Shown: positions 13,251 to 34,532 of the stretch, one piece after another
Layout of the letters: each line of letters opens with the position of its first letter
Numbering within the stretch: position 1 is the stretch's first letter
Translations under genes and position numbers: made by a program
DNA from: Opitutus sp. GAS368
GTDB taxonomy: Bacteria; Verrucomicrobiota; Verrucomicrobiia; Opitutales; Opitutaceae
Assembly: GCA_945861645.1 (NCBI GenBank)
Contig: CAMAVZ010000015.1
Location: 1 to 46,860, forward strand
Direction: 5' to 3'
Length of the DNA stretch: 46,860 nt
The notes under the pieces: model-generated
Told to the model about the DNA's origin: nothing
Seen by the model: only the letters and a program-made list of their open reading frames with translations
Database searches by the model: none

Positions 13251-13339
13251 GGTGCTGTATGCTGTGGAAACCCCTTAGCCTACACGCTGGGCTGCTTTCA
13301 GTTCAGTTTACCTCCGCTAGCCTAACCACCCCTAATAAT

Positions 13340-16300
13340 ATGAATAGTCTTAATTCGCGACTGCGAGCCTTGCTGCTCACTTCCGCTCTGGGTCTCATGA
13401 CGGTGGGACACCTGACCGCGCAAACCACGGCTAAGCCCGTGGCCCCTAAATTAGATGACGATGAAGCCATCGTGCTTTCGCCCTTCGTGGTCAGCGCCGC
13501 GGAAGACGCTGGCTATACGGCAAAAAATACTTTGGCCGGAACGCGCGTGCGGACTGAGTTGAAGGATGTGGGCTCGGCCATTTCCGTGGTCACGGCAAAA
13601 TTTCTCCAAGATACTAATTCAAAGAACTCCGCCGATCTGTTAGTTTACACCACGGGCACCGAAGTAGCGGGTCAAGGGGGTAACTTTGCCGGCGGTGGTG
13701 ATGGGGCGATTATCGCCGACGGCTCCTATGTGAAGCCGGTCGCCAATACCCGCGTCCGCGGGTTGGCCGCGGCCGATAATCTTCGCGATTTTTTCCTAAC
13801 CGATATTCCTTGGGACTCCTATAATGTGGGTCGTGTCGATTTACAGCGCGGGCCCAATTCGATCCTGTTCGGTATTGGTTCTCCCGCGGGCGTGATTAAC
13901 AGCAGCGTCAATACCGCTAGCCTTAAGAACGCCAACAAGGTGGAAGTGCAAATTTCGGACCTCGGTTCAATTCGCGGCACGCTCGATCTCAACAAGGTAA
14001 TCATTAAAAATGAGCTCGCGATTCGCATTTCCGCTTTACAGGACAACACTAAATTCAAGCAGGAGCCGGCCTATAAGGACGACAAGCGCATGTACGGCGC
14101 GCTGCGTTGGGAGCCCAAAGCTTTCGCTAAGAACGGTGCGCATACTTCCTTCCGTGCGAATTACGAGTCGGGTGATATTAAGGGCATCAATCCTCGCTAC
14201 GCCCCGCCCATCGACGCAATCACGCCGTGGTTTGCGAACATGAACAAGGCTACGTATAACTGGCAGGACTCTAACCAATTGACGGACCGTACGAGCGCTC
14301 GCTTTAGCCCTTACGTGGGCGCAGCTGGTCAGCGTATCTGGGACGGCAACGTGGTAACATTTACAGATCCAGCGAGTACCTCCCAGAGCGGTGCGTTTAG
14401 TGCGACCGCCCAAAACTACCCGCTCAATCAGCCGGGCGCGAACAACAATACGACCAACGGTAGTTATAAGGGCATTGTAACCTATAATCAAATCGCGATG
14501 GGGCTGCGTTTGCCCGGTTACGCCATCAACCCGTACAAGGCTAAGTCCCTCACGGATGCTTCAGTATTCGATTTCTATAATCATCTCATCGAGGGTGAGA
14601 ATCGCAGCAATACCAGCAACTTTAAGGCGCATAACCTGACGCTTAACCAAACCTTCATGGACAACAAACTCGGTTTCGAGTTGGCCTATGATAAGCAGGA
14701 CACAAAGTGGGGTTATCGGAACTTTCTTGCTTGGGATGCTGCGGCAATTTCGGTGGATATCATGAACACCTTTATGGATGGTTCAGCTAATCCAAACGTA
14801 GGCCGCGCGATGGTTATCGGTGGCGGTGGATCGGCCGGCAGCGGCAGCACCCACCGTATTCGTGAATCGGTACGGGGAACCGCTTTCGGCGAGTTTGATT
14901 TCAAGGATGTGCTCAGCGAGCAGAACCTGCTGGCGCGTATTCTGGGCCGCCATGTCTTGACCTGGAGTGGAGCGAGGCAAGCTAATGACTCCACCAACCT
15001 TGGTTGGAACAACTGGTTCGTGGGCACCGGTTATGGCCCCACCGCGATGTCCTCCGTGGGGCAATCCTCCCGCGATGCAACCACAATCACTTATCTCTCG
15101 CCGAAGTTGACCGGTTCTTCTGCGTCAGGGCTTAACCTCTCGCCTATCACGGCGCGGCAGCAGGCCGCCAGCACGACAGTTAAGCAATGGGACACGGTCT
15201 CGAAGAGCTTCACGAACTATGCTCTCCCGATTGTGAATCCGAATGCTGATACCTACACTGAGGCTACTCGGCCGTATACGCAGGTCAGCATATCGCGGGA
15301 CGAGATCAATTCCCAAGTCTTCGTTTGGCAGGGCTACCTCTTCGACGGCGCCTTGGTGCCAATGGTTGGTTGGCGCCGGGATGTCGCTGAAAACTTTGAT
15401 GCGGGTTCCCCCAATAAAGTGGGTGGCTTGGTCACCAATTTCGCCGATCCACTTTACCGAATTCCCACGGGCCAGGCTGAAGCCGGCAGCGGTAAATATA
15501 AAGAGCGCTTGTACAGCATCGTCACTGGCACGACTCATACGAGCAGTCTAGTGGCGCACCTCCCGAAGCGGTTCAGCAAGAATCTTCCTTGGGGTTTAGA
15601 TGCGAGCGTCTTCACGAGCTCATCAGCTAACTTTCAGCCTGATGCTTCCCGTAAGGACATCATTGGCGGTCGGATTCCTTCGCCGAGTGGTGATACCAAG
15701 GATTACGGTTTCGTGGTCTCAGCCTTGGAAGGAAAAATCGCGCTCAAGGTTAATCGTTACCATACGACCGTGGCTAATGCGACCCTCTCGGGTGAACTCG
15801 GCAATGCCTACCTGATTGGTGCCGGCGAGGCTTGGGGTAACGTGCACGCCAAGCGGCTCGCCCGCGGCGATGCTGGTGACAGCTCCGCTATCTGGGATAA
15901 TTTCGGCACCACCTCAGCAGCCTCCGCTTATGGTGCTGGGAAAATCGTCCAGTGGCAACCTGCCGACTCCGGCTTAAAAGACCCGTCGAAAGGCTATGAT
16001 TCGGGGACCAACCCCTACACCCAAGCTGCCTTGGATGCGCAGTACTCAATCCAACGCAAGTCGGTCGATACCTGGAATGCTAATCCAATTCCGCTCTCGA
16101 TGCAGGTTGCTTGGGGTATGACTGATTATGCTACCGGCGGCGGCAGTTGGAGCATGAACAGTGTAGCCGTCACCGGTGACACCGACTCGCGTGGTACGGA
16201 ATTTGAGCTCGCGATTAATCCAATCAAGGGGCTCGACGTTTCTATCAATGCCTCCAAGACGGACGCTAAGCGTCTCAATATTGGTAAAGCTTACTCGGAC

Positions 16301-16849
16301 TGGATCGAGGGGCGTTACTTGCTCTATAAAGGGCCGATTGGCGACATGCGCATGTGGGGTAACGGCAATTGGGCTATCCCCGAGGATTCGGGTGGCACGG
16401 TGCGGTCTAAATTTAACGCCGAAACTTATCCCGCCTACCAACTCGCGTTGGCTCTTAACAATAGCAATGTCCCCGAGCTGCGCCCTTGGCGCTTCAATGC
16501 CGTCGCGAATTATTCGTTCAGCGAAGGTATGTTCAAGGGGGCGAATATCGGTGGTAGCTACCGCTGGCAGGATAAAAACGTCACAGGCTTTAAGCTCAAT
16601 AGCGCCAAGAATGGCTACGACGTGAATGATCCTTGGTTTGGACCTAAGGAGACTGCGTTCGATCTCTGGATTGGCTACGGCCGCAAGATCTTCTCAGATA
16701 AGATCAATTGGCGGATGCAGCTGAATGTTCGCGATCTCTTCGCGAAGAACTCCTTGATTCCGATCACCGTGCAGCCAGATGGGTCACCGGCCGCTTTCCG
16801 CATTCATGAGCCGCGGGTGATTTCCTTGAGCAGCTCGTTCGAATTCTAA
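13340..16849 (+). CDS. TonB-dependent outer-membrane receptor (Opitutaceae-type), probable glycan importer
   Basis: Signal peptide from ATG 13340 (ORF track starts at 13259); LSPFVVSAAEDAGY...TLAGTRVRT; plug RVDLQRGPNSILFGIGSPAGVIN; C-terminal Phe (SSSFEF). Confidence 0.92.
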   Translation: MNSLNSRLRALLLTSALGLMTVGHLTAQTTAKPVAPKLDDDEAIVLSPFVVSAAEDAGYTAKNTLAGTRVRTELKDVGSAISVVTAKFLQDTNSKNSADLLVYTTGTEVAGQGGNFAGGGDGAIIADGSYVKPVANTRVRGLAAADNLRDFFLTDIPWDSYNVGRVDLQRGPNSILFGIGSPAGVINSSVNTASLKNANKVEVQISDLGSIRGTLDLNKVIIKNELAIRISALQDNTKFKQEPAYKDDKRMYGALRWEPKAFAKNGAHTSFRANYESGDIKGINPRYAPPIDAITPWFANMNKATYNWQDSNQLTDRTSARFSPYVGAAGQRIWDGNVVTFTDPASTSQSGAFSATAQNYPLNQPGANNNTTNGSYKGIVTYNQIAMGLRLPGYAINPYKAKSLTDASVFDFYNHLIEGENRSNTSNFKAHNLTLNQTFMDNKLGFELAYDKQDTKWGYRNFLAWDAAAISVDIMNTFMDGSANPNVGRAMVIGGGGSAGSGSTHRIRESVRGTAFGEFDFKDVLSEQNLLARILGRHVLTWSGARQANDSTNLGWNNWFVGTGYGPTAMSSVGQSSRDATTITYLSPKLTGSSASGLNLSPITARQQAASTTVKQWDTVSKSFTNYALPIVNPNADTYTEATRPYTQVSISRDEINSQVFVWQGYLFDGALVPMVGWRRDVAENFDAGSPNKVGGLVTNFADPLYRIPTGQAEAGSGKYKERLYSIVTGTTHTSSLVAHLPKRFSKNLPWGLDASVFTSSSANFQPDASRKDIIGGRIPSPSGDTKDYGFVVSALEGKIALKVNRYHTTVANATLSGELGNAYLIGAGEAWGNVHAKRLARGDAGDSSAIWDNFGTTSAASAYGAGKIVQWQPADSGLKDPSKGYDSGTNPYTQAALDAQYSIQRKSVDTWNANPIPLSMQVAWGMTDYATGGGSWSMNSVAVTGDTDSRGTEFELAINPIKGLDVSINASKTDAKRLNIGKAYSDWIEGRYLLYKGPIGDMRMWGNGNWAIPEDSGGTVRSKFNAETYPAYQLALALNNSNVPELRPWRFNAVANYSFSEGMFKGANIGGSYRWQDKNVTGFKLNSAKNGYDVNDPWFGPKETAFDLWIGYGRKIFSDKINWRMQLNVRDLFAKNSLIPITVQPDGSPAAFRIHEPRVISLSSSFEF

Positions 16850-16893
16850 GTGATTAAATAAATCCTGCTGAATTTTTCAGTGGTTTGAATTCC

Positions 16894-16927
16894 AAGTCCG
16901 GCGATGAATAATCGCCGGACTTTTTTT
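16894..16927 (+). terminator. Rho-independent terminator after the TonB-dependent receptor
   Basis: aagtccggcgat-gaata-atcgccggactt perfect 12-bp stem running into a T7 tract. Confidence 0.9.
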
Positions 16928-17143
16928 ATCTACCCGCAGGAGCGCACACAGCTCTGGGCCCGCCGCGAAGTAAGGGGTGAGTCCTGAGTAACCGCATCAA
17001 TCGCCAAGCATCAGGGCTCGTGCTAGCCGGTACCAAGAGGCTTGTTTGAGCCGCAGGAGTCACGCTTTTCAGAGCCAGTGAAATTAGGGATTTGTCATGA
17101 CTTTCCCTTGCGACTGCCTGGGCCTTGGCTTCATATTAAGTGG

Positions 17144-18442
17144 ATGAGTTCACCGCATGGGTTGACCCGCGGCGTCGTCTGGTCCGCGGCCCTGGGAATA
17201 GTATTTGCCGCCTTCGGTTGTTCGCGCGAAGTAGCGCGCCCAGTCGCGGCGCTGGTACCGCCGGTTACGGTGGTGGCGGCCACCGACTGGTTTTGGCCTC
17301 AAGAGGTAGCGGGCGCGGCTGAAAATAAACCGTGGATTTCGCACGTTAATATCAGCGACCTTGATCGTGATGGGTTGGCGGATATTTTATTTTGCGACGC
17401 GAAGCTCAATGCGGTGCTCTGGATCCGCCAGATCGCGCCTGGTCGTTTCGCGGAACCGCAGGTCTTGGGTGCGGCACTGTCGGGGGTGGTGCACGTGGAG
17501 GCGGTGGACATGGATGGCGATGGGGACCTCGATTTATTGGTGGCCTGCATGGGCGAATTATTCCCCAACAATGATAAAATTGGTTCGGTGCTTATTTTAG
17601 AAAACGATGGCGCGCAACATTTCACCCCGCATGTGCTTGCCGAGCATATTGCTCGGGTGACTGATGTGCGCGCCGGCGATTTTGATGGCGACGGTAAACT
17701 TGATTTGGCGGTCGCGCAGTTTGGCTACGATCAGGGAGAGATCCGCTGGATGAAAAATCTCGGGGGGTGGCAATTTTCTAGTCACGTTTTGCTCAGCCTC
17801 TCTGGGGCGATCAATGTTTGCGTGGCGGATATGAACGGCGACCGCACACTGGATATCGTGGCGGTGGTATCGCAGCAACATGAGGAGATTTATTTATTTG
17901 AAAATAACGGCCATGGGGAATTTACGCCCAAAAAATTATTTGGCTCCACCAATGAGGATTTCGGCAGTAGTGGCCTCAGTTTATGTGATCTGAATCGCGA
18001 TGGGCGGCCGGATATTTTGTATAGTAATGGAGATGGTTTTGGCTATGCGGACCCCGGAGCCCGTCCGTGGCATGGGCTCCAGTGGCTCGAGAACCTCGGC
18101 CAAGGTTTTTTTCGATTCCATCGTATCGGTCAGCTTTCTGGGGCTTACAGTCCCGTTGGGGTCGATCTCAATGGCGATGGGGCAATGGATATCGTTGCAG
18201 TCAGCGGATTCAACGACTGGTCCGATCCCGCGGCGGCGGCCCTCGTCGTTTTTGAGAACGATGGACAGATGAATTTCACCCAAAAAGTTTTAGCGCACGC
18301 GCCGACCCAGCTCATCACTTGCGCGGTGGGATCGTTGGATGGCTCGGGCCGGCCGGCGATCGTCACTGGGGGCAATTATTCGTATCCCCCCTTTGATCAT
18401 ATGGGGCGGGTCACACTTTGGCGGCAAAAGCCCAAGCCATGA
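17144..18442 (+). CDS. FG-GAP/VCBS-repeat beta-propeller protein, probable lipoprotein
   Basis: Repeated DxDxDGxxD loops (DLDRDGLAD, DMDGDGDLD, DFDGDGKLD, DMNGDRTLD, DLNRDGRPD, DLNGDGAMD); hydrophobic leader ending AAFG-C from ATG 17144 (ORF track starts at 17042). Confidence 0.82.
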   Translation: MSSPHGLTRGVVWSAALGIVFAAFGCSREVARPVAALVPPVTVVAATDWFWPQEVAGAAENKPWISHVNISDLDRDGLADILFCDAKLNAVLWIRQIAPGRFAEPQVLGAALSGVVHVEAVDMDGDGDLDLLVACMGELFPNNDKIGSVLILENDGAQHFTPHVLAEHIARVTDVRAGDFDGDGKLDLAVAQFGYDQGEIRWMKNLGGWQFSSHVLLSLSGAINVCVADMNGDRTLDIVAVVSQQHEEIYLFENNGHGEFTPKKLFGSTNEDFGSSGLSLCDLNRDGRPDILYSNGDGFGYADPGARPWHGLQWLENLGQGFFRFHRIGQLSGAYSPVGVDLNGDGAMDIVAVSGFNDWSDPAAAALVVFENDGQMNFTQKVLAHAPTQLITCAVGSLDGSGRPAIVTGGNYSYPPFDHMGRVTLWRQKPKP

Positions 18443-19884
18443 GAGCGGTCCAAACCAACCAGCCTTGGCTGATCGGTGGTATTTTAATCACACTGGCTCT
18501 CGCCGGTGGGCTCGGGCTCGCCGTCAGTAGCCAGCACCAGCGGACAATAATCTTAAATCATCTGCCCCCGGCGCCCGTTTTTAGCTCTCGAGTGGCGGGC
18601 TTAAAGGCGCGGGTGGCGAGCGCTGAGGGGAGCGCCCGGAGTTACTGGCGGCCAGGGACCGGCCTGGCGGAGCTAAGCCGGCTTTATCAAGCCAACGGAT
18701 TTTATAACGAAGCGCTGCAGTGTTTGGCGGGGCTGCAACAGCTTGAGCGCGCAGAGGCCCGCTGGCCCCATTTGCAAGCCGCCATGCTCGGCGAATTTGG
18801 GCAACTGGATGAAGCGCTCCCAGCGCAGCAGCGCGCCGTCCTCTTGGCGCCCAGCTATGGGCCGGCTCGCCTGCGCCTCGGCGATATGCTCCTTAAAACC
18901 AATCAGACCGTGGCCGCAAATTTGGCTTATGCGGAGGTCCTACGGCGTGAGCCGGCTAATCCGTATGCGTTGCTCGGTTTAGCTAAGAGCGCGGTAGGGC
19001 AGGGGAACTGGGTGGAGGCCGGCGCCTGGTTGCAGCAGGCCCGCGACGCGCATCCTGATTTTATTGGCGGGCTTTCGTTGCTGGTGACCGTGCGCGAACA
19101 TTTAAATGATCAGGCGGGGGCAGATGCCTTGCGGGCGATGATTGGCAAGCGAGAGTTTACGGAACTGGCGGACCCTTGGCGTGACGCGCTAACGGATGAT
19201 TGTTATGATCCCTATTTGCTCAGTGTTGCCGCGGCGAAGGCCAATTTTTCGGGAGATGGCAAGACGGCCCGACGTTGGCTGGAGCAGGCCATGGCGCTCG
19301 CCCCGACGGATCACGCCTATCGCCGACAACTCGGCAAGCTGCTCTTAGAAACGCGAGAATTCGGGCCGGCGCAGTGGCAGCTGGAAAAAGCGGTCGCGCT
19401 CGCCCCGGATGATTCTGAAGCTTGGAGCCTGCTGATTTTATTATTTAACGCGCAAGGCAATCGAGCGGCGGCCGAGCGAGCTTTAGCTAGCGGCTTGGTT
19501 TATTGCCCGTCATCAGCGGCCCTCCGATATACCAACGGGCAAAGGCTCAGTCAGGCGGGTCGTTATCCGGAGGCGATTAGCGAATTGCAGATGGCGCGCC
19601 GCTTACGGCCTAACGAAGCGAATGCTTCGATCGATCTTGCGCTGATTTATTTCCGGCAAGAGCGCTTGGCTGAGGCGGTAGCTGAACTCAAGACTGCGCT
19701 GACCGTCCAACCGGGTCATCCACTCGCGTTGGGCACCTTGGCGCGTTACGCCATTGGGACGGCGGATGAACCGGCGGCCCGACATTGGATCCGGCAGCTC
19801 CGGCTGCAGCCGCGGGTTCCGCTAGCTGATCTCAACCAGATAACAGCTGAATATCAGCAGCTCTTTAAGCGTGCCCCTTGGTAA
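18439..19884 (+). CDS. Tetratricopeptide-repeat protein with N-terminal membrane anchor
   Basis: ATGA overlap with the upstream stop; TM segment WLIGGILITLALAGGLGLAV; repeated TPR-like units (AVLLAPSY, LRREPAN, AMALAPTD, AVALAPDD, RRLRPNE, LTVQPGH). Confidence 0.82.
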   Translation: MRAVQTNQPWLIGGILITLALAGGLGLAVSSQHQRTIILNHLPPAPVFSSRVAGLKARVASAEGSARSYWRPGTGLAELSRLYQANGFYNEALQCLAGLQQLERAEARWPHLQAAMLGEFGQLDEALPAQQRAVLLAPSYGPARLRLGDMLLKTNQTVAANLAYAEVLRREPANPYALLGLAKSAVGQGNWVEAGAWLQQARDAHPDFIGGLSLLVTVREHLNDQAGADALRAMIGKREFTELADPWRDALTDDCYDPYLLSVAAAKANFSGDGKTARRWLEQAMALAPTDHAYRRQLGKLLLETREFGPAQWQLEKAVALAPDDSEAWSLLILLFNAQGNRAAAERALASGLVYCPSSAALRYTNGQRLSQAGRYPEAISELQMARRLRPNEANASIDLALIYFRQERLAEAVAELKTALTVQPGHPLALGTLARYAIGTADEPAARHWIRQLRLQPRVPLADLNQITAEYQQLFKRAPW

Positions 19885-19887
19885 AAT

Positions 19888-23499: not shown

Positions 23500-23540
23500 G
23501 CGAAGGGCTAAAGTGAGGGATCAGTAGGCAGAGTTAAAAG

Positions 23541-23602
23541 AAGATAGCAAAGTCAAGGCGGTGGGAAAGGAGAGTCTTTATCTAACAGTTGAGAACGATC
23601 AG
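23541..23602 (-). promoter_or_regulatory. Tandem direct-repeat operator plus extended -10 upstream of the minus-strand ASPIC/UnbV gene
   Basis: Minus strand: ctgatcgttctcaac (23602-23588) and ataaagactctcctt (23581-23567), 21 bp period; TGcTATCTT (23549-23541). Confidence 0.55.
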
Positions 23603-23707
23603 AAAATCGACAACTTCGGTCGGGCGGCATGGGGACTAGGCTTGCCCCTGGGCTCGGCTTGGGTTTGTTTGGCGGGCTACAATTAGCGGTGTCGACGCTA
23701 CCATGGC

Positions 23708-26161: not shown

Positions 26162-26198
26162 TCCGCGTGGCCGAGTTAATTTTATAACCCAATTAATA

Positions 26199-28013
26199 AT
26201 GGATTCTTTTTTGTGGCCGAGCCGAGAGGTCTTAACCCGCTGCATCGGTTGTTTGCTTGGCGGGTTTATATTGCTTGGCGGGAGTGCTCGCGGTGCAGAG
26301 CCAAGCTCCCCCAGGATTTCGGCGGGGCCGCAAGCTTATCGGACTAGTCCGGTAAGCTGGATGTCATGGGGCGAGTCAGCCTTCGTTCGGGCCCAGCAGG
26401 AGCAGAAGCCCATTTTTGTTTTCATCGGCTCTGCCACCAGCGAACTGAGTCGGGCGATGCGGCTCCAGACTTTTGCCCACGCGGACACCGCGGCCCTGCT
26501 GAATCAGAATTTTGTCTGCGTGCTTGTGGAGCGCGAGGAGCACCCGGAGTTGGTCGCGCTTTACCAGTCCTATTTAAGCGAAGTGAAGCAACTCACTGGC
26601 CAGCCCCTGAATCTTTGGCTCACGCCAGAACTATTGCCGTACGAAGGGGCCGCCTACCTGCCGCCGACCGAAGAGTGGGGCAAGACGAGTTTCCTGAAGA
26701 TCGCCCAACAAGCGGCCACGGCTTGGACGACGGACGCCGGTGGTTGTCGCGCTCGAGCCACGGAAGCGGTGACGCAATTGAGCGCGGTCCACCAAGCGGT
26801 GACTCCAGCGATTCTGGCACCCGATATTTTATCGCATAAATTAGCCGCTGCGGCGGCCGCTGGGCGAGCGAGACTCGCTGAAATAAATCGAGGTTTGGCG
26901 GCCCCCCCGCTCGCCCCCGGGCCGGAATTTTTGCGTTTTCTCCTCCAGCGATCGCCGGCCGATCGTGCCGCCGCGCTTGGTGCGTTGCGGGAGATAGTGG
27001 TGAGTCCGCTGCGCGATCCGCTCGACGGCGGATTTTTCCGGTACGCCACGGATGCGCGTTGGCGCCTACCGTATGCGCAGAAGAATCTGGCCGACCAGGC
27101 TCGAATTACCCTGGCCTTGCTGGATGCCGCCGCAGGCGATGAGTCAGGATTTTTCGCCGCCGCCGCCCGCGGGGCGCTGGATTATGTCCTGACCCGGCTG
27201 GCCCAGCCCGGCGGAACCTACGCGGCGGGCGAGGACGCGACCGAGGAGGAATTCGTCGGCTATTATGCTTGGACAGCAACAGAGATTGATGCGGCCTTGG
27301 GTGCGGCCGCGGCTGGCTTTAAGATCGCGCACGGAGTAGAAGCGGCCGGCAATATTTCCGCGGAGGATGATCTGTCGGGCAAATTGAAGGGAAGAAATTT
27401 TCTGCGTGGCTCCCCTGAAACCGGGTATGCGGCGGCGGCCCGTTTGCGGGTGGTGCGCGATCTTCGTCCCGCTCCGTTGCGGCAAGAGACGGCCACGGCC
27501 CGGACGCACGGCTTGCTCCTGGCGGCCCTGGCTCGAGCCGGAGGCGAACTGAAGCAGCCGCTTTATCGCCAAGCGGCGACGCAGTTACTCGCCGTGGTGG
27601 AAAAGGAATTTTTCCTTTCGAGTAGCGGAGAGCTCCGGCACTTGCGTGGGGCGAACACTCCGGCGGGTCCGGCCGACTATGCCGCGTTGGCTCTGGGTTA
27701 TCGCGAGCTGGCTCGGGCGGAGCACCGGCCGGAGCTGGAGAGGCTCGCCGCTCAGTGGCTAGCGCTGGCGAATGAACAGTTCCTCGATCCGATCAGCGGA
27801 CTTTATTATGCGACCCCGGCCGTCATGCCGGCGGGTGTTTTTTTCCGTCCGCTGGCGCAGGATGAGGCCCCCTCGGCCGAAGCGTTGGCATTGCTGGCGG
27901 GCCTGCCACTGGCGCAGCGTTCGCTCATCGCCGCAGGCTTAGCAGCCACCCTTGAGGCGGCGGCGGCTCCTGCGTCCGGCGATGTACTGTTAGCCTTGGC
28001 GCAATTGCCTTAA
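26199..28013 (+). CDS. YyaL/SSP411-like protein (DUF255 thioredoxin-like domain plus helical barrel), degenerate, probable signal peptide
   Basis: SPVSWMSWGESAFVRAQQEQKPIFVFIG, LNQNFVCVLVEREEHPEL, DPLDGGFFRYATD.RW; ATG 26199 preferred over GTG 26136. Confidence 0.8.
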   Translation: MDSFLWPSREVLTRCIGCLLGGFILLGGSARGAEPSSPRISAGPQAYRTSPVSWMSWGESAFVRAQQEQKPIFVFIGSATSELSRAMRLQTFAHADTAALLNQNFVCVLVEREEHPELVALYQSYLSEVKQLTGQPLNLWLTPELLPYEGAAYLPPTEEWGKTSFLKIAQQAATAWTTDAGGCRARATEAVTQLSAVHQAVTPAILAPDILSHKLAAAAAAGRARLAEINRGLAAPPLAPGPEFLRFLLQRSPADRAAALGALREIVVSPLRDPLDGGFFRYATDARWRLPYAQKNLADQARITLALLDAAAGDESGFFAAAARGALDYVLTRLAQPGGTYAAGEDATEEEFVGYYAWTATEIDAALGAAAAGFKIAHGVEAAGNISAEDDLSGKLKGRNFLRGSPETGYAAAARLRVVRDLRPAPLRQETATARTHGLLLAALARAGGELKQPLYRQAATQLLAVVEKEFFLSSSGELRHLRGANTPAGPADYAALALGYRELARAEHRPELERLAAQWLALANEQFLDPISGLYYATPAVMPAGVFFRPLAQDEAPSAEALALLAGLPLAQRSLIAAGLAATLEAAAAPASGDVLLALAQLP

Positions 28014-28052
28014 GGCGAGGGGTCGGCTTTTTTAGGTGGCACACCGATTTTA

Positions 28053-29765
28053 TTAGCGGGCGGGTGGTTTAACGCGGAGGCGGCTGATGAAGCTCCAATC
28101 GCCTTTTGCGTTTTGGATTTTAATTAACAGCTGATTTTTTCCCGCCAGGAGATGCAGCGGGACGATATCGTCATCGATTCGGCTGATGCGCTGCACCCAG
28201 CGATCGTGGATCAGCTCGCCGTTGAGCCAAATTTTTAGGCCGTCATCACTCCCGATGCCCAGCCAGCCTTCTAAGGCTTGGGGCAACGCGAGCTCGGTCC
28301 AAGCGTAGCCGACGCAATAATCCCGACCGACTCCGGTTTGCAGATTAACGAATCCTTCCGTTGATGGCACGCGTTGCCAAGTAAGCTTCGTTTCCTCGAC
28401 GAGTTGGGTGTCGCCCTCCGTTGGCCTCACCGCGGTGGCGGTGGCAAAGAAATCGGTGTGGAAGGAATTCATCTGCGCGGCGCGGTTCACTTTTTCCTGA
28501 CTGACGCTGAACTTAGTCAGAACCGCCGTGCCGTTTTCATCGATGTAGTCCACGCTCGAAAATACGTTGGGCGGGACTGGGATGGGCCGAAGCACTAGCC
28601 AGGAATTGATCGCGATTTCGATACGGGCATCGCCGCGTAGCCAAGCAATGTCCGCGGCGGTGGCAGTGGACTTCGGCGTGGTGTCAAAAAAATAAGCATA
28701 CGTTCCGGCGACCGCTTGACCGTGATCGATGGCGGGGCTGAAGCGCGCGGTTGCGCGCAAGGCCTCGGCGAGTTGGGACTGAAGGCGAGTGGATACGCCG
28801 CCAGTGGGCGCCACCACCGCGCTGAGCACGCGACCCTCTGCGCTCACTTCGAGGCGCGCGCTGACGGCCGTTACGCCGCGCTGACTCAAGCCTTCCGCAC
28901 GCAGCGGATTGCCCACGAGGACGGGATCAGCCTGCCTTTGGGCGTATTGCTTGGGCCGCACTGCATCGAGGTAGTGCAGGCGATCGCGCCAAGAGGACTG
29001 ATTGGTGGGATCGACCGACCTAACTAGATCAGATAAATCATCAATGAACTGTTTGATCGCCACGACATTCTCGGCGCGGGAGGAAAGCAGCGGGACCCCG
29101 TTGCGGGAGATGGCGAGCATTAAGCAGCCCTCGCGAGGGATGAAGCGGGCGAGGCGGCTCATGTTTTCCTGCTCCGCCCAGTCGGCGATGAGCCAAGGCA
29201 TCGCGGACTCTGTGGCGATGCGGCGATGATCACTGGGCTTGCCGCGCACGCCTACAAATACCGTTTCACACCACCCGCCGTAAATTTGCTGAAGGCGGCG
29301 GTAGGTCGGGATGAAGCCGTGCACCATGCCCCAGGATTCTCCGTCGTTGTTGGAGCCAAAGAGCACCACGAAAATTTCTGGCTCGGCGCGAGTGCTTAGA
29401 TCAACAGGCACTAATTGGTGCTGATTGACTTGAGCCACGCGACCGAGCAATTCGCGGCTGATCAAGCCTTGGGCTTGATCCCAGTGAGCCGCGACTGGCG
29501 GGCGCGAACTGGTTTCAGCATAAAAGCGGCGGCAATCTTCTGGGGTAAGTCCGCGCAAGTGGGTGCGCTGTCCTCTGGTCGCGCTGAGATTAAATAAAGC
29601 GAAGGGCCCTAGGACTTCGGTCGGCTCAGCGCGAAACTGCGCACCTGCCGTGTCTGTCCATTGCGAGAGGCCGGTGGCCGACCCGCTCGTCCCCAGCAGA
29701 GAAAAAATCAGCAGCCCGATAGGGCTTAAACGCTCACGGGTGAACTTCCAATGGGGGCCGACCAT
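28053..29765 (-). CDS. Exported multidomain protein: SHD1-like, thioredoxin-like (no CxxC), TonB C-terminal-like, PA14-like beta-sandwich
   Basis: WTDTAGAQFRAE; FVVLFGSNNDGES...ETVFVG; LEVSAEGRV...ARFSPAIDHGQAV; GYAWTE...IGSDDGLKIWLNG...LAGKNQLLIKIQN..GDWSF; tandem TAA TAA stop. Confidence 0.6.
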   Translation of the reverse strand: MVGPHWKFTRERLSPIGLLIFSLLGTSGSATGLSQWTDTAGAQFRAEPTEVLGPFALFNLSATRGQRTHLRGLTPEDCRRFYAETSSRPPVAAHWDQAQGLISRELLGRVAQVNQHQLVPVDLSTRAEPEIFVVLFGSNNDGESWGMVHGFIPTYRRLQQIYGGWCETVFVGVRGKPSDHRRIATESAMPWLIADWAEQENMSRLARFIPREGCLMLAISRNGVPLLSSRAENVVAIKQFIDDLSDLVRSVDPTNQSSWRDRLHYLDAVRPKQYAQRQADPVLVGNPLRAEGLSQRGVTAVSARLEVSAEGRVLSAVVAPTGGVSTRLQSQLAEALRATARFSPAIDHGQAVAGTYAYFFDTTPKSTATAADIAWLRGDARIEIAINSWLVLRPIPVPPNVFSSVDYIDENGTAVLTKFSVSQEKVNRAAQMNSFHTDFFATATAVRPTEGDTQLVEETKLTWQRVPSTEGFVNLQTGVGRDYCVGYAWTELALPQALEGWLGIGSDDGLKIWLNGELIHDRWVQRISRIDDDIVPLHLLAGKNQLLIKIQNAKGDWSFISRLRVKPPAR

Positions 29766-29774
29766 TATGCGCAG

Positions 29775-29837
29775 AGGTTAAGAGAGCGTCGCCCGACCGA
29801 CTATGAGAAATTCATTTTTTAAAATGAGATTTCTTGC
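29775..29837 (-). promoter_or_regulatory. Tandem direct-repeat operator plus -10 upstream of the multidomain gene
   Basis: Minus strand: gcaagaaatctcatt (29837-29823) and aatgaatttctcata (29816-29802), 21 bp period; TAACCT (29780-29775). Confidence 0.55.
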
Positions 29838-29920
29838 GGGAATTTTTTGGCTAAAATAATTACATCGGCGTCGACAGTTTTAGAAATTCTTCTCAGATTA
29901 ATCCTTGGCGTCTTTGTGCT

Positions 29921-31192
29921 ATGAAGCTCTGTTTTATTATTATTTCACTTTTGAGTGGGCTCCTCAATGGCGCTTGGGCGGCGGGGGACAACCCCGTGCT
30001 CTACTGGAACGAACAAGCGCTGAACGCCACCCGTCTGGCGCGCAATCCGCCGCCGATTGCTTCAGCGTATTATGCGACTTACCACGCGGCGATCTTTGAT
30101 GCGGTGAACGGCATCACCAGCACGCACCGCGGATGGTTGGTGCAAGCATCTGCGCCGACGGGGGCTAATCCGGCCGCGGCGATCGCTAGCGCTAGCTTTG
30201 CCGTTCTGAATGCGCTTTGGGGTCAGGCGGCTAATCCCCGCAACTTTCAGCTCGCTTATGATCATGCGCTCGAGGCGATCCCAGATGGCCCGGGCAAAGA
30301 AAATGGCCTCGCTTGGGGTCGGCAAGTGGCCGCACTGATTTTAGCTAATCGCGCCCAGAGTGGTTTCGACCGGCCTAGGCCTGGCCAATACGCGAGCACG
30401 GAACCGGGCTTATGGCGCGAAACGCCGCCGGGATTTCGTCCGCCCGTATTGCCCTATTGGGGCAAGGTTACCCCTTTCGTGCTCACCTCCCCGGCGCAAT
30501 TTCGCGCGCCGCCGCCGCCGTTATTAACGTCCCAGTCGTACGCCGATGAATTGGCCCAGATCAGTCGTATCGGCGGGCGGGATGGGGCTGAGCGCACTGA
30601 ATATGAGACGCTCAGTCCAGCTTTTTGGGCTGACGATCTGGGCACGGCCACGCCGCCAGGGCACTGGAATGTAATCGCGCAGGATCTCGCTCGGCGGAAT
30701 CAATTATCGACGGAGGCAACCGCGCGCTTGTTTGCGCTCTTAAATCTAGCGACCGCGGATGCGGCGATCGCTTGCTGGGAGACCAAATATTTCTATCGCA
30801 CTTGGCGACCCGAGACCGCCATCCGCGAACTTGATGCAGTGCTCAATCCCTTCGTGCGGCCGCAGCCCAATTTTATTCCGCTCATGGTGACGCCGGCGTT
30901 CCCAGGCTATGTCTCGGGGCACAGCACATTTTCAGCTGCCGCCGCACAGATTCTAACGCACTTCTTTGGTACCGATGATATAGAATTTACGGTCACCTCA
31001 GAAGGGCTGCCCGGCGCCGTGCGTTCCTTTAAACAACTTTCCGCCTGTCGCGATGAGATCGGTCGCAGTCGGCTATTCGGCGGAATTCATGTGCGTTCAG
31101 ATGATGCGGCCGGCCAGGCCATGGGTATAAAAATAGGCGATTGGGTGTTCGCGTATGCGTTGCTTCCTAACCCCACCCCTCGGAGGCCTTGA
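29921..31192 (+). CDS. Secreted vanadium-dependent haloperoxidase / PAP2 superfamily protein
   Basis: Signal peptide; KYFYRTWRP (K-x6-RP), PAFPGYVSGHS, SRLFGGIH. Confidence 0.85.
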   Translation: MKLCFIIISLLSGLLNGAWAAGDNPVLYWNEQALNATRLARNPPPIASAYYATYHAAIFDAVNGITSTHRGWLVQASAPTGANPAAAIASASFAVLNALWGQAANPRNFQLAYDHALEAIPDGPGKENGLAWGRQVAALILANRAQSGFDRPRPGQYASTEPGLWRETPPGFRPPVLPYWGKVTPFVLTSPAQFRAPPPPLLTSQSYADELAQISRIGGRDGAERTEYETLSPAFWADDLGTATPPGHWNVIAQDLARRNQLSTEATARLFALLNLATADAAIACWETKYFYRTWRPETAIRELDAVLNPFVRPQPNFIPLMVTPAFPGYVSGHSTFSAAAAQILTHFFGTDDIEFTVTSEGLPGAVRSFKQLSACRDEIGRSRLFGGIHVRSDDAAGQAMGIKIGDWVFAYALLPNPTPRRP

Positions 31193-31196
31193 ACTG

Positions 31197-34100
31197 ATGC
31201 GTGCGGCGCTTTTCATGGTAGGAGGAATCAGCCTGACGGTCAGCCTTTGGGCAGCTAATTTTTCGGCGTCTCTTTTACCGGCTCGCTCGCTCGCTCCGAC
31301 GGGGAGCAGGCTTTTTACCGTACTCTCGCCGACCGAGACCGGCGTGAACGGGTCCAACGTTTTCAACGACCCCCGCATGTGGGGCGCGCGCTTTCGCGAA
31401 CTCACGTTAGGCGCGGTAGAGACCGGCGTTGCCGTCGCGGACTTCGATCGCGACGGCCGGCCGGATATTTTTTCTGTTTCGAAAAATGGCCCGTGCGCGC
31501 TTTATCGGCAGATCGCGCCCTTCGAATTTACCGACGTTGCGGCGACTGCCGGTGTGACTGCGGCTGAGCCGGGCGCCAGCAAAACCGGAGCCACGGTGGT
31601 GGACCTGAACCAAGATGGCTGGCCTGACATCTACGTCTGTCGCTACGACGCCCCGAATCTATTATTTATCAATAATCATGACGGTACCTTCACCGAGAGC
31701 GCCAAAGTCTACGGGCTCGATATCAAGGACGCGTCCGTCCACGCCGTTTTTGCCGACTACGACCGCGATGGGTATCTGGACTGCTATCTTGTCACCAACA
31801 TTCTTGATTTTTCCCAGGCGCCGCAGGGCCGGCGCGACTACCTGCTCCGCAACAATGGCAACAACACCTTCACCGATGTCTCCAAGGCGGCGGGCATCTG
31901 GGGTCTGACGCAGGGCCACACGGCGCTCTGGTTCGATTGTAATCACGACGGCTGGCCGGACCTCTATGTTGCTAATGATTTCGAAACGCCTGACCGGCTC
32001 TATCTTAATAATGGTAATGGCACCTTCACTGATGTGGTCGATGAGCGCCTGCCGCATGTAACCTATTTCTCTATGGGCGCCGATGCCGGCGATCTGAATA
32101 ACGATGGCCTCATTGATTTTTTTATCACTGACATGCGCGACCGCCACCACGCGGAGTTCATGACCGGCATGGAAGAAATTGGGCGCGGTCTCTGGGAGAG
32201 CGAACGGCCGACTGCACTTATCCCGCAATACATGTGGAACGCGGTTTACCTCAATACCGGCACCGACCGCTTCGCTGAAGTGGCACATCTCACCGGGATG
32301 GAAGCGACCGGCTGGACCTGGTCGGCCCGGCTCGGCGACCTAGACAACGACGGCCGCCTCGATGTTTTTGTGACCGCCGGGATGATTCGTAACTTCATCG
32401 ATGCTGATCTGGTCGATAAACAGAACATCGCGCCGAATCTGGCGGCGCGGGCCGGCGTGTGGAAAAACGCCCAACCGCGGCACGAAACCACACTCGCCTA
32501 CCGCAATCTCGGTGATCTGAGATTTGCCAACGTTTCCGCTGAGTGGGGCCTCGACCACAACGGCGTCAGTTTTGGCTGCGCCGAGGTCGACCTCGACGGT
32601 GACGGCGACCTGGATCTGGTCTTCGCCAACTACAACGAGCCGCCCACGGTCGTCCGCAACAATACCATCGGCGGGCACCGCGTGGTGATCAAGCTCGCTG
32701 GCCGCGCGCCCAATTTAGACGGGATCGGGGCGGAACTGCAGATCGAGACAGCTTCCGGCCGGCAAGTGCGGCAACTCTTTACCGAGCGCGGCATCGTTGC
32801 CAGCGAACCACCCCTCGTCCACTTTGGCCTCGGCGACGACACCACCATCAAGCAACTCACCATTCGCTGGCCGCGCGGCCAGATACAGGTGCTGGAAAAT
32901 ATCCCGGCTGACCAGATGCTCACGATTGCCGAGCCGCCGCTGGCCACGGCAACAAAACCGGCGCCGGCTAGCTTCCGAACTCCCGCGCGCCCGGACGCTT
33001 TATTTACCGAGTCCGCCGCCGGGCTTGGGCTCAAGCATACCAGCCAGTTGAGTCCCTTAGACGAGTTCACGCGCCAGCGCCTTCTGCCGCGTCGCTTGAA
33101 CGGTTTGGGCCCGGTGCTGGCGACGGCCGACGTAAACGGGGATGGCCTCGCCGATCTTTTCGTTTCCGGTGCGGCCAGACAGTCCGGTGAACTCTTCCTC
33201 GGCCAGTCCGACGGTCGCTTTTTAGCCGCGCCCCATCAGCCATGGGCTGAGGCTGCCGAAGCGGATGATGTTGGCGCGGTGTTTCTCGACGTGAACGGTG
33301 ACGGACATCCCGACCTGTTCATCGCGGCCGGCGGGGTGCGCAAGCTCTCGGGCGATGCCTTGCTCAACGACCGGCTTTACCTGAACGACGGCCACGGCCG
33401 CTTCACACTCGCTCCGGTTGGCACGCTGCCGCCCGATGGGGAGAGCACCGCGGCGACGGCGACCGCTGATTTCGATGGCGACGGCCGCGCGGATCTTTTT
33501 GTCGGTGGCCGGGTCGTCCCGGGAAAATACCCGGCGACGCCGCGCAGCTTTATTTACCACAATGTCGGCGGAAAATTAGTCGATGTGACCGACGAACTCG
33601 CCCCGGGCCTGCGCACCATCGGCATGGTAACGGCCGCGGTCTGGGCTGATGTGGATGGCGACCAGCGTCCTGATCTTATCCTCGCAATTGAGTGGGGTCC
33701 GATTTCCTACTGGCATAACACGGGTCATGGCTTCGAAAACCTTACGGGGACGGTCGGGCTTGCCGCCGTCACCGGTTGGTGGAGCGCGCTGACTGTGGCG
33801 GATGTTAACGGCGACGGCCGACCTGATTTCATCGCTGGCAATGTGGGCCTTAACACGAAGTACCACGCCAGTGCCGCTGAGCCGACGGTCCTCTTCGCTG
33901 GGGATTTCGACGGCCGCGGCAAGGAGCAGCTCGTCGAGGCGCAGTTTGAGGACGGCAAACTTTTTCCGGTGCGCGGCCGTAGCAAGCTGGCCTACGCCTT
34001 TCCGTGGCTACCGAAAAAGTTCCCCACGTATCAAGCCTACGCGCACGCGACGGTGGAGGATATTTTCGGGGCCAAGCCGCTTGCCGCTGTGCGCCAGTTG

Positions 34101-34532
34101 GCCGCCACAGAACTGGCCAGCGGGATCTTTCTCCAGCAGCCCGACGTTACCTTCCGGTTTCAGCCGCTGCCGCGACTCGCCCAAATCGCCCCGATCAATG
34201 CGATCGTAGCGCGCGATTTCGATGGGGATGGCTCGCTCGATCTTTTTTGTGTCGGCAATAATTTCGGACCCGAAGCGAACACCGGCCGTTTCGATGGGGG
34301 CCTAAGTGGGTTGCTGAAGGGGAACGGCCGCGGCCGCTTCACAGCGCTGATGCCTGCTCAGTCCGGCCTGAGTGTTGTGGGCGACGCCCGATCGGCGGTC
34401 GCGCTTGCTTTGCCCAGCGATAAGCGTCCAGCCATTGCCGTTGCTCGCTGTGACGGACCGGTGCTGCTGTTCACTCCGGCGAAGCCTGAACGCGGAATCG
34501 AGCCAGCTTTTTCTGCCCCCCTTAGGCAATGA
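31197..34532 (+). CDS. Second secreted ASPIC/UnbV (CRTAC1-like) FG-GAP/VCBS protein
   Basis: GGAGG then ATG 31197 (ORF track starts at 31155); signal peptide; many DxDxDG loops; ASEPPLVHFGLG...IRWPRG; collinear with 19888-23499. Confidence 0.88.
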   Translation: MRAALFMVGGISLTVSLWAANFSASLLPARSLAPTGSRLFTVLSPTETGVNGSNVFNDPRMWGARFRELTLGAVETGVAVADFDRDGRPDIFSVSKNGPCALYRQIAPFEFTDVAATAGVTAAEPGASKTGATVVDLNQDGWPDIYVCRYDAPNLLFINNHDGTFTESAKVYGLDIKDASVHAVFADYDRDGYLDCYLVTNILDFSQAPQGRRDYLLRNNGNNTFTDVSKAAGIWGLTQGHTALWFDCNHDGWPDLYVANDFETPDRLYLNNGNGTFTDVVDERLPHVTYFSMGADAGDLNNDGLIDFFITDMRDRHHAEFMTGMEEIGRGLWESERPTALIPQYMWNAVYLNTGTDRFAEVAHLTGMEATGWTWSARLGDLDNDGRLDVFVTAGMIRNFIDADLVDKQNIAPNLAARAGVWKNAQPRHETTLAYRNLGDLRFANVSAEWGLDHNGVSFGCAEVDLDGDGDLDLVFANYNEPPTVVRNNTIGGHRVVIKLAGRAPNLDGIGAELQIETASGRQVRQLFTERGIVASEPPLVHFGLGDDTTIKQLTIRWPRGQIQVLENIPADQMLTIAEPPLATATKPAPASFRTPARPDALFTESAAGLGLKHTSQLSPLDEFTRQRLLPRRLNGLGPVLATADVNGDGLADLFVSGAARQSGELFLGQSDGRFLAAPHQPWAEAAEADDVGAVFLDVNGDGHPDLFIAAGGVRKLSGDALLNDRLYLNDGHGRFTLAPVGTLPPDGESTAATATADFDGDGRADLFVGGRVVPGKYPATPRSFIYHNVGGKLVDVTDELAPGLRTIGMVTAAVWADVDGDQRPDLILAIEWGPISYWHNTGHGFENLTGTVGLAAVTGWWSALTVADVNGDGRPDFIAGNVGLNTKYHASAAEPTVLFAGDFDGRGKEQLVEAQFEDGKLFPVRGRSKLAYAFPWLPKKFPTYQAYAHATVEDIFGAKPLAAVRQLAATELASGIFLQQPDVTFRFQPLPRLAQIAPINAIVARDFDGDGSLDLFCVGNNFGPEANTGRFDGGLSGLLKGNGRGRFTALMPAQSGLSVVGDARSAVALALPSDKRPAIAVARCDGPVLLFTPAKPERGIEPAFSAPLRQ

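Follow-up and report, generated by a model that had tools for sequence, protein, structure and literature searches.

A SusD-less TonB-receptor locus of an Opitutus bacterium in which FG-GAP propeller genes are paired with genes for TPR-armed membrane proteins, one of them oligosaccharyltransferase-like in its predicted fold

What do nine consecutive genes for exported or membrane proteins do inside a carbohydrate-active enzyme (CAZyme) locus, and do they act as one system? The question is raised by a 46,860-nucleotide (nt) stretch of Opitutus sp. GAS368 ("the window" below; contig C15, GenBank CAMAVZ010000015.1), which belongs to a genome of 2.3 Mb that is 84% complete; the window holds 26 genes according to an open reading frame (ORF) listing and Pfam and NCBIfam scans. 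The gene set under study consists of nine long ORFs in succession (13259-34532), named g09 to g17 here. An initial annotation had proposed that their products form a multi-protein apparatus of the surface or periplasm, for glycan capture, transport or modification, that replaces the SusCD arrangement. The ORF listing bears out the run of nine genes, and the start given for it, 13340, is the second ATG (M28) of g09, which is also the probable start of this gene and leads to a normal signal-peptide-like N terminus as judged by eye.

We read the region as a SusD-less uptake locus of the carbohydrate utilization (CUT) type, equipped with propeller partners that are held by tetratricopeptide-repeat (TPR) proteins and with a partner-specific glycosyltransferase, so that three envelope modules lie side by side. 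This reading is tentative, and we give it a probability of roughly 0.45. It builds on the identities of the genes, on their conservation as three modules, on a GT-C fold of the oligosaccharyltransferase (OST) kind that carries a TPR arm, and on the sharing of an operator-like motif. The proposed role of the set in glycan capture, transport or modification stays plausible.

The identities of the first three genes follow from Pfam matches. Specifically, g09 (13259-16849, + strand; 1196 amino acids (aa) from ATG 13259) is a TonB-dependent receptor with a Plug domain (PF07715, E = 1.1e-8, residues 101-212), g10 (17042-18442, +) is an FG-GAP beta-propeller lipoprotein (FG-GAP_3, E = 2.2e-45, six stretches), and g11 (18418-19884, +) is a TPR protein with one N-terminal transmembrane (TM) helix (TPR_19, E = 4.1e-25). 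They are followed by g12 (19888-23499, -), a secreted, CRTAC1-like double propeller of 1203 aa (FG-GAP_3, E = 2.8e-89, 12 stretches; UnbV_ASPIC, E = 5.4e-37, two stretches), and by g13 (23708-26161, +), an 817-aa membrane protein that resembles STT3 and AglB at the level of the fold. The remaining genes are g14 (26136-28013, +), DUF255/YyaL-like (Thioredox_DsbH, E = 2.2e-35); g15 (28053-29765, -), an exported protein of 570 aa characterized with AlphaFold2 (AF2) and Foldseek; g16 (29921-31192, +), an exported protein of the vanadium-haloperoxidase-like/PAP2 type (PAP2, E = 9.1e-9); and g17 (31155-34532, +), a second CRTAC1-like double propeller (FG-GAP_3, E = 3.2e-87; UnbV_ASPIC, E = 1.7e-20). 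The Pfam scan assigned no family to g13 or g15. Export signals were judged from the N termini by eye and with a hydropathy script, which gave signal-peptide-like N termini for g09, g12, g14, g15, g16 and g17, a lipobox cysteine (Cys60) for g10 with a probable start at ATG 17144, and a TM helix at residues 18-36 of g11; export or membrane signals are thus present on all nine proteins, and Pfam matched no glycoside hydrolase (GH) family in any of them. Upstream of g09, all within 10 kb, lie genes for GH5, an AXE1 esterase, GH1, GH2 with mannosidase Ig domains, an MFS_2 symporter and a XylR-like regulator, and downstream of g17 follow an oxidoreductase, an MFS transporter, a PF05426 lyase-like gene and, at a greater distance, GH92 (Pfam/NCBIfam). 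Pfam scans found no SusD family among the 26 window ORFs, and a search of the genome (84% complete) with PF07980 (SusD) was negative at E<=1, with a positive Bacteroides control. Altogether, the initial annotation was accurate in its description of a CAZyme locus with exported, non-hydrolase products and no SusD, and in its labels for the TonB receptor, the three FG-GAP proteins, the TPR protein, and the YyaL-like and haloperoxidase-family proteins.

Whether the nine genes travel together was examined by tblastn of the window proteins on 20-40-kb neighbourhoods of g13 homologues, with 24 same-genus genomes in a genus survey and 41 genomes searched altogether; one genus dominates the counts, and the kin are not independent. 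The counts use 50 near-full-length GT-C rows and 83 near-full-length propeller rows, with fragments, mostly at contig ends, excluded and two pieces at G008:738-741 kb merged. Many contigs are short, and the ORFs of related loci were begun at their first start codon, which often makes them too long. For loci of named genomes, the best 80 of 197 confirmed stretches yielded 79 loci, 74 of them with a called GT-C ORF. We found that the nine genes split in relatives into three groups, namely module A (receptor, FG-GAP lipoprotein and TPR protein), module B (CRTAC1-like propeller and GT-C protein) and module C (a g16 homologue and a g17-type propeller, often with DUF255), with g15 as a gene on its own. 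Receptor, double propeller, single or tandem GT-C, FG-GAP lipoprotein and TPR genes occur together at three loci in the relative G008, at three in G017 and also in G012, and the copies within a genome stand beside different neighbours and CAZyme sets. In each of the three, one locus has the order AXE1-GH1-GH2-MFS-regulator-receptor-propeller-GT-C(-GT-C)-lipoprotein-TPR, and these syntenic loci are entirely devoid of g14-g17. In the complete relative G008, the g16 homologue and module C lie at 2.16 Mb and the g15 homologue at 1.61 Mb, apart from receptor/propeller/GT-C modules at 0.69, 0.74 and 1.63 Mb. Modules A/B adjoin module C in three genomes, namely that of the window, L031 and G028. As such, the expectation that the nine genes recur as one set failed, with its members scattered in G008, and what did recur are the subsets A+B and g16 with a g17-type propeller.

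Within module B, a propeller gene lies within 600 bp of 26 of the 50 GT-C genes and within 5 kb of 33 of them (41 genomes), and 22 of 28 adjacent pairs are divergent, as are g12 and g13. The named-genome loci (best 80 of 197 stretches) give a similar picture, with a propeller upstream of the GT-C gene in 16 loci and a divergent arrangement in 16/16. Conversely, 40 of 83 propeller genes have a GT-C gene within 5 kb, the remainder including the g17 type and many at contig ends. Homologues of g13 occur in 19/24 same-genus genomes, and a single genome can have as many as 9 matches. Among the 74 GT-C loci from the best 80 of 197 stretches, a TPR-family gene is found in 30, a propeller in 20 and an FG-GAP lipoprotein in 7; the receptor family is found in 20, or in 24 when a second receptor family is counted. 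Genus-wide, the propeller type is present in 15/24 genomes, which are exactly the 15 with the close GT-C type, and the other 9 are without it. Homologues of g16 (12 same-genus genomes) and g15 (13) are present only where the propeller/GT-C pair is also present; this co-restriction of propeller, GT-C, g16 and g15 to one subset of genomes may be the marker of a single subclade. Tandem GT-C pairs, 42-46% identical to g13, were seen at G008:C1:686299-691192 and G012:C161:48684-53595 and in L031 and L063, which points to repeated local duplication in the family.

The strongest element that we add to the initial annotation is g13, which it had named as STT3-like and left unused, and which our modelling suggests to be a membrane enzyme of the protein-glycosyltransferase kind. 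The AF2 model, built from 33 homologues, has a pLDDT of 88.9 and a pTM of 0.90 and consists of about 13 TM helices (residues 1-501), an OST-type alpha/beta periplasmic domain (about 517-658) and a TPR arm (662-817), the last 155 residues being assigned to TPR by profile hits and structure alignment. Foldseek placed AglB at E = 6.5e-11, with archaeal, eukaryotic and bacterial OSTs at the top of the list, followed by DPY19, ArnT and Aft. VIA-align likewise gave AglB a Z of 22.9 (root-mean-square deviation (rmsd) 4.2, 575 aligned residues), human and yeast STT3 19-20.5, DPY19 18, Pmt4 15.6, PglB 15 and ArnT 14.8, so that Z spans 22.9 to 10.8 across OST, DPY19, PMT, ArnT, ALG, Emb and Aft proteins, with about 12% identity to OSTs. 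The periplasmic domain (517-658) by itself matches the C-terminal globular domain of AglB-S2 (3VU0_C) with Z 9.8 and rmsd 2.8 over 130/154 residues at 19% identity. A model loop of low confidence (368-388) presumably corresponds in place to the flexible external loop of OSTs. D98, which falls between helices 3-38 and 111-127 in the first periplasmic loop, is acidic (D or E) in 33/33 homologues, and further conserved residues are D190 (97%), E299 and H313 as well as R524, D525 and E565-N566 in the periplasmic domain; this conservation fits an active enzyme. The fold makes g13 a member of the GT-C superfamily, and transfer from a polyprenyl-phosphate sugar is predicted only. The STT3-like label therefore stands at the level of the fold (Foldseek, VIA-align) and fails by the Pfam STT3 model.

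Two known groups of enzymes invite comparison. The likeness of g13 to the GT66 proteins AglB, STT3 and PglB extends over the membrane and periplasmic globular domains, where they are its best structural matches; it differs from them in its added C-terminal TPR arm and in its many paralogues per genome. TMEM260, according to the available part of its description, is a protein-specific O-mannosyltransferase with a GT-C core, a Rossmann-like domain and a five-helix TPR, in which TPR "fingers" recruit the acceptor and an alpha/beta "palm" holds the catalytic base, and it carries, in the first luminal loop, an acidic residue that is conserved (bioRxiv 10.64898/2026.03.17.711096). GT-C core, alpha/beta domain and short TPR follow in the same order in g13, a likeness of architecture only that is drawn from the same partial account. 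The two proteins differ in that g13 has about 13 TM helices and TMEM260, as far as that account goes, 11, and in that the membrane and alpha/beta domains of g13 are OST-like rather than PMT-like. A sequence relation between them was not detectable (no Pfam family for g13 at E<=10), and no TMEM260 chain appeared in the PDB search, from whose set it may have been absent. In the portions available of the two sources, TMEM260 and TMTC1-4 each serve one class of protein domain (10.64898/2026.03.17.711096; PMC7801869).

The family of g13 reaches beyond the genus. Homologues are found in records named Opitutus terrae, Opitutaceae, Lacunisphaera and Oleiharenicola and, more distantly, Chthoniobacterales/Terrimicrobiaceae; that of Opitutus terrae, P0028, is 39% identical. 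Some homologues are borderline for STT3: an L079 homologue scores 23.5 bits for a cut-off of 24.5, and P0039 and P0044 carry precomputed PF02516 assignments. In Lacunisphaera-type loci, the GT-C gene lies between CAZyme genes (PcRGLX-like lyase, GH43/SGNH, with an SSF transporter) and the receptor, PMT_2/TMTC-like GT-C+TPR genes being further neighbours there, and the CAZymes of GT-C loci also include a glucuronyl esterase. In Chthoniobacterales/Terrimicrobiaceae, a gene for a DUF3739 (filamentous-haemagglutinin-type) protein of about 3200 aa stands directly 5' of the GT-C gene on the same strand (L093:187-9888(+), L097, L099, L103, L105, L106); Sel1-repeat and PEP-CTERM proteins are also encoded near these genes. 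The six longest g13 homologues include no GT-C/propeller fusion. In 23/74 loci (best 80 of 197 stretches), the neighbour of the GT-C gene encodes a second GT-C+TPR protein, of PMT_2/TMTC type and 580-780 aa long, and seven such genes lie directly 3' of a receptor gene. Their type is indicated by a DD motif 30-60 residues from the N terminus, which is a hallmark of TMTC proteins in the available part of PMC7801869, by a PMT_2 match in one of four proteins tested (E = 2.6e-5) and by Atlas features of 0.97-0.98 to PMT_2 clusters; the N-terminal domain had no match in PDB sequences or NCBIfam. Examples are L059:12459-14207(-), L050:12416-14704(-) and L035:12433-14493(-), and one lies in the genome of the window itself (C1:19.4-20.6 kb). 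Since these neighbours stand beside the STT3-like GT-C genes, two distinct GT-C+TPR families sit at receptor loci.

The candidate partners of g13-type proteins are CRTAC1-like propellers such as g12. Both g12 and g17 consist of an FG-GAP propeller followed by an UnbV/ASPIC domain, two such units in each protein of about 1200 aa (Pfam), and are 49% identical to each other. The sole PDB relative of g12 is human CRTAC1 (9ETN, E = 5.7e-24), which shares the order of propeller and UnbV/ASPIC domain and differs in that g12 and g17 have two units. We found no function stated for bacterial ASPIC/UnbV proteins in the open-access literature, supplements excepted. A sequon at 1098/1099, seen in 11/13 GT-C-adjacent, 1/9 non-adjacent and 0/5 haloperoxidase-linked propellers, was dropped as a candidate acceptor site, since it falls within the FG-GAP consensus and the groups mirror the phylogeny; WxxW motifs were absent from the propeller sequences scanned. 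An in-frame TGA suspected in g17-type orthologues was likewise set aside, the translation of L110 giving an ordinary stop codon.

The third propeller, the lipoprotein g10, is paired with a TPR protein in another manner. The genes g10 and g11 overlap by 25 nt, and in 7/7 related loci a g10-type lipoprotein gene is followed by a TPR gene on the same strand. Complex prediction with g10 residues 60-466 and g11 residues 40-488, using our own 13-row alignments and three controls, gave ipSAE values of 0.88, 0.87 and 0.88, with 0.00 for the best control. At least 77% of the contacts were common to the runs, and pLDDT was at least 87 for the partner. The ipSAE mark applied is reached by 58/80 solved complexes and 2/110 mismatched pairs, counts that are rough since we supplied our own alignments. 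Predicted contacts involve, on one propeller face, loops from every blade and, in g11, TPR residues from 94 to 466, with g10 300-307 and g11 122-131 among the interface residues, which supports a model in which the g11 superhelix would wrap the g10 propeller. Physical interaction of pairs, which the initial annotation had expected within the set, is thus predicted for one pair, g10-g11.

How the set is connected to the CAZyme genes can be judged from the receptor and its regulator. Siderophore-receptor models match the N-terminal 300 aa of g09, and Pfam barrel models gave no match even at E<=10; the stretch of about 980 aa after the plug, a terminal Phe and homologues of about 1200 aa are compatible with a 22-stranded barrel, from sequence only. 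These homologues, 25-46% identical, adjoin the module in relatives. Directly 5' of g09 lies the XylR-like regulator gene (11953-13143, +), which joins a periplasmic-binding-protein fold to an AraC helix-turn-helix (Peripla_BP_3, E = 5.3e-31; HTH_18, E = 1.9e-18) and which has orthologues of 68% identity ahead of the receptor in G008, G017 and G012. An operator-like motif, GCAA-N5-CTCAWT, has five exact copies in the window, all within the 2648 bases (5.7%) that are intergenic; it was defined with one position widened after the first search, which is a weakness. Three direct copies stand ahead of a TATAAA box in the g09 promoter (13154-13223, +), one lies about 60 nt 5' of g15 (29823-29837, -) and one is 5' of the GH2 (beta-mannosidase-like) gene (7811-7825, +), and a GGCAAT...CTCATT element occupies the equivalent place 5' of seven orthologous receptors. 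The motif fits an operator of the adjacent XylR-like regulator, and its sharing ties g09 and g15, and not g12/g13 or g16/g17, to a putative CAZyme regulon that includes the GH2 gene. A shorter pattern, TTCTCAAT, gave three matches when used alone, was equalled by 16/100 shuffles and was replaced by the longer motif. The initial annotation had assigned a shared motif to three promoters of the nine genes; a definable motif is found in two of them (g09 and g15), and its third target, the GH2 gene, lies outside the set. The g12|g13 and g15|g16 spacers also share an 11-mer (23616-23626 / 29790-29800) and a 9-mer with GTCGAC (23690-23698 / 29868-29876), both in opposite orientation, which may be the motif that was originally meant. 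K-mer counts over eight divergent intergenic regions of the g12|g13 type found nothing shared, in a test that is weak given over-extended ORF starts.

A terminator-like hairpin with a 12-bp stem and a T run (16894-16922, +) begins 45 nt after the g09 stop and is the top-ranked such site; the total of terminator-like sites in the window is at chance level, so only the position and stem length of this hairpin count. Expression was checked in four libraries labelled metatranscriptome, which hold 0.01-0.03 of the window words. Contigs of these libraries match g09 without differences over 13274-13813, 14108-16152 and 16169-16834, and pieces of 151-268 nt fall in g10, g12, g13, g14 and the g16/g17 junction. 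No contig joins g09 to g10, and neither this gap nor the uncovered parts carry any weight. These contigs fit transcription in nature, DNA carry-over being the alternative source.

Module C has a different character. In g16, PAP2 is above its Pfam cut-off and VCPO_N and VCPO_2nd are below theirs, and the best PDB relative is a vanadium-dependent haloperoxidase (4CIT/4USZ, E = 1.2e-34; which we take to be the iodoperoxidase of Zobellia galactanivorans), with the K..RP, SGHS and R..GGIH stretches aligned. This anion site is common to haloperoxidases and PAP2 acid phosphatases, so that halogenation is a candidate activity of g16. Although g16 resembles 4CIT/4USZ in this site, it differs in its genomic setting: a g17-type, CRTAC1-like propeller gene is directly next in 6/7 neighbourhoods of g16 homologues (the seventh being a contig end), with DUF255 then following in three, and the order g16, g17-type, DUF255 also holds in G028. 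In the window, g17 overlaps g16 by 38 nt, and g17 orthologues next to a haloperoxidase-like gene are 69-77% identical. The product of g14 matches the DUF255 structure 7TKV (E = 6.6e-46) over a thioredoxin-fold domain and a helical barrel; the redox motif CHWC of 7TKV aligns to SELS, so both cysteines of the CxxC are lost. The thioredoxin fold of g15 is also devoid of cysteines at the redox site when the sequence is read by eye, and neither protein is probably redox-active.

For g15, the AF2 model (pLDDT 87.5) comprises the cysteine-less thioredoxin fold, a small alpha/beta unit and a galactose-binding-like beta-sandwich, and the Foldseek matches are the C-terminal domain of DipZ, tryparedoxin/DsbE and GH2 N-terminal domains. 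The initial annotation had called g15 a TonB_C fusion, a label that goes back to a sub-threshold match (PF03544, E = 0.17, 12.8 bits for a cut-off of 24.6, residues 301-356); PA14 is likewise sub-threshold (E = 0.037). TonB has an N-terminal membrane anchor and a proline-rich spacer, neither of which is seen in g15, where a signal peptide is followed by the thioredoxin fold. The small alpha/beta unit of the model lies at the TonB_C-like stretch, and no TonB chain was among the Foldseek matches listed. The label is not fully borne out. Similarity searches with g15 matched 4867 library proteins at E<=0.001, for the most part by way of the C-terminal sandwich, and its homologues are solitary in five neighbourhoods, one of them near a receptor.

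How much of this is already known? TonB-dependent-receptor CUT loci of Xanthomonas were reportedly described by Blanvillain in 2007. According to the available part of PMC5615132, SusD-less TonB-receptor carbohydrate loci of this kind are known, including in aquatic bacteria and freshwater Verrucomicrobia, and the proposal that the set replaces SusCD therefore went too far; we also saw no sign that the propellers do the job of SusD. Like CUT loci, the region has a SusD-less receptor clustered with secreted glycoside hydrolases and esterases, an inner-membrane sugar transporter and a regulator. Unlike CUT loci as the available part of PMC5615132 describes them, it has CRTAC1-like propellers, FG-GAP lipoprotein/TPR pairs and GT-C enzymes that recur with the receptor. 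With the SusC/SusD loci of Bacteroidota it shares an outer-membrane TonB-dependent transporter beside CAZymes and exported accessory proteins, whereas it lacks a SusD-like gene, has a regulator of the XylR/AraC type and bears no CarboxypepD_reg extension on g09 (Pfam). We found no description of the accessory set (CRTAC1-like propeller with GT-C+TPR; FG-GAP lipoprotein/TPR beside a receptor) in open-access full text, supplements excepted. The SusD-less receptor frame is thus known already, and the undescribed part is the accessory propeller/GT-C and lipoprotein/TPR pairs.

Taken as a mechanism, our reading would run as follows. Under the XylR-like regulator, g09 would import the oligosaccharides that the GH5, esterase, GH1 and GH2 enzymes encoded nearby set free. 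The lipoprotein propeller g10 would be clasped by the periplasmic TPR superhelix of g11, itself a single-pass protein of the inner membrane, and the propellers would be Ca2+-type binding or catalytic partners, presumably binding glycan or Ca2+, held near the inner membrane by TPR arms. The GT-C protein g13 would take a sugar from a polyprenyl-phosphate carrier and glycosylate the neighbouring propeller, which its TPR arm would recruit, whereas the g16, second propeller and cysteine-less DUF255 genes would form a module of their own and g15 would be co-regulated with the receptor. The step in which each GT-C protein glycosylates the propeller encoded beside it is suggested by the tight and mostly divergent pairing, by the many paralogous pairs per genome, by closest folds that are protein-directed and by the precedent of TMEM260 and the TMTC proteins; we regard it as possible, with the odds somewhat against it. 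About equally doubtful is its generalization, in which Opitutaceae and their relatives would possess an undescribed STT3/AglB-like GT-C+TPR family of partner-specific periplasmic protein glycosyltransferases for an adjoining propeller or giant exported protein, with FG-GAP propellers docking on TPR arms generally.

Several observations weigh against this account. The oligosaccharyltransferases typically have a WWDYG-type acceptor-binding motif, and nothing like it was read in the sequence of g13, which the Pfam STT3 model (PF02516) also fails to match. There is no propeller within 5 kb of 17/50 GT-C genes, some of them at contig ends, and distant GT-C kin are without an adjoining propeller, so the GT-C family is wider than the pairing. 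Adjacency and co-occurrence of GT-C and propeller genes would be expected of a shared pathway no less than of an enzyme and its substrate, and a scan of 29 propeller sequences for a conserved N-x-S/T sequon gave nothing beyond the yield of the FG-GAP consensus. The operator-like motif is absent from the divergent g12|g13 promoter region, which together with the hairpin after g09 means that expression of the modules need not go along with that of the receptor. Binding of g10 to g11 is supported by model confidence and is in that sense a prediction, and the imported substrate, probably beta-manno/gluco-oligosaccharides, is suggested by the neighbouring genes only.

The closest competitor, which we consider unlikely, is that the GT-C protein builds or modifies an envelope glycan or lipid (lipopolysaccharide, capsule or wall polymer) or is a general protein glycosyltransferase, and that the propellers are enzymes or binders for the imported polymer, for instance Ca2+-dependent lyases or oxidases, that merely lie nearby. 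ArnT, Emb/Aft and ALG enzymes, which act on lipids and glycans, do belong to the same fold class, the distant kin of g13 have no propellers, and the GT-C loci are rich in CAZymes such as the PcRGLX-like lyase, GH43/SGNH and the glucuronyl esterase. A general function, however, would not call for as many as 9 copies in a genome, every one next to a propeller paralogue of its own; the best structural matches, periplasmic domain included, come from OSTs and DPY19, which modify proteins, and not from lipid or glycan transferases; and a C-terminal TPR arm is, in the available parts of the sources, a hallmark of protein-directed GT-C enzymes (10.64898/2026.03.17.711096; PMC7801869). That the nine proteins together make up a single apparatus, at the surface or in the periplasm, in place of SusCD appears improbable to us. 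It would accommodate the export or membrane signals on all of them, the adjacency of modules A/B and C in the window, L031 and G028, the motif that g15 shares with the receptor, the predicted g10-g11 binding and the confinement of g16 (12 genomes) and g15 (13 genomes) homologues to genomes with the propeller/GT-C pair. Yet in G008, G017 and other relatives, hundreds of kilobases separate both the haloperoxidase module and g15 from the receptor modules, the syntenic loci of G008, G017 and G012 do without g14-g17, nothing is SusD-like in fold or position, and SusD-less receptor loci of other phyla function without such partners.

Two further explanations we hold to be equally improbable. The lipoprotein/TPR pair, perhaps along with the TPR arm of the GT-C protein, could serve the biogenesis or energizing of the large receptor barrel, in the manner of BamB/BamD or TolB/CpoB, which offer an analogy to a propeller lipoprotein with a TPR protein. 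In keeping with this, g10 and g11 directly follow the receptor gene and have that architecture, g11 has weak matches to models of BamD, BepA, PilW, Tgl and YbgF, and g15 has its sub-threshold TonB_C-like stretch. The g11 matches, however, are generic, far below all cut-offs and of the order of ordinary TPR similarity; no search made FG-GAP propellers relatives of BamB or TolB; the pair is missing beside many receptors of these genomes; and lipoprotein homologues occur in just 7/74 GT-C loci (best 80 of 197 stretches). The core of the region could alternatively be oxidative chemistry, with g16, the propellers and the thioredoxin-fold proteins handling reactive halogen or peroxide in the envelope, for polymer attack or defence, and with the receptor locus as a mere neighbour. 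While the vanadate/phosphate-site stretches of g16, the conserved order of g16, g17-type propeller and then DUF255, and the two thioredoxin-fold proteins alongside would suit this idea, both of the latter lack redox cysteines, acid phosphatases use the same active site, and modules A and B, which are found repeatedly in the absence of module C, would be left unexplained.

If our reading of the locus as a CUT-type system with a partner-specific glycosyltransferase were true, it would describe a bacterial counterpart of the domain-specific glycosylation by TMEM260, TMTC and DPY19, and a new bacterial protein-glycosylation system whose substrate can be assigned gene by gene, which would explain a widespread family. 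It would also give a first functional handle on bacterial CRTAC1/ASPIC proteins, which are abundant across several phyla. A candidate substrate adjoins each enzyme, which makes the proposal directly testable. Verrucomicrobia rank among the major degraders of polysaccharides in lakes and soils, and their SusD-less receptor loci are barely studied; in this one, CRTAC1-like propellers stand in conserved pairs with TPR-armed membrane proteins, one family of which is OST-like, has no Pfam model and is present in multiple copies.

Beyond the nine genes, the stretch at 34522-41363 encodes a GFO/IDH/MocA oxidoreductase with a twin-arginine-like N terminus (RRAFLQ), an MFS transporter and a PF05426 alginate-lyase-like protein, along with a 2Fe-2S and molybdopterin-binding (aldehyde-oxidase-type) pair, and these genes may constitute an oxidative sugar pathway of their own. 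The C-terminal half of the GH92 gene (44175-46511) has a 97%-identical copy on a short contig of the same genome (C91:2-1228), which is either a recent duplicate or assembly redundancy.

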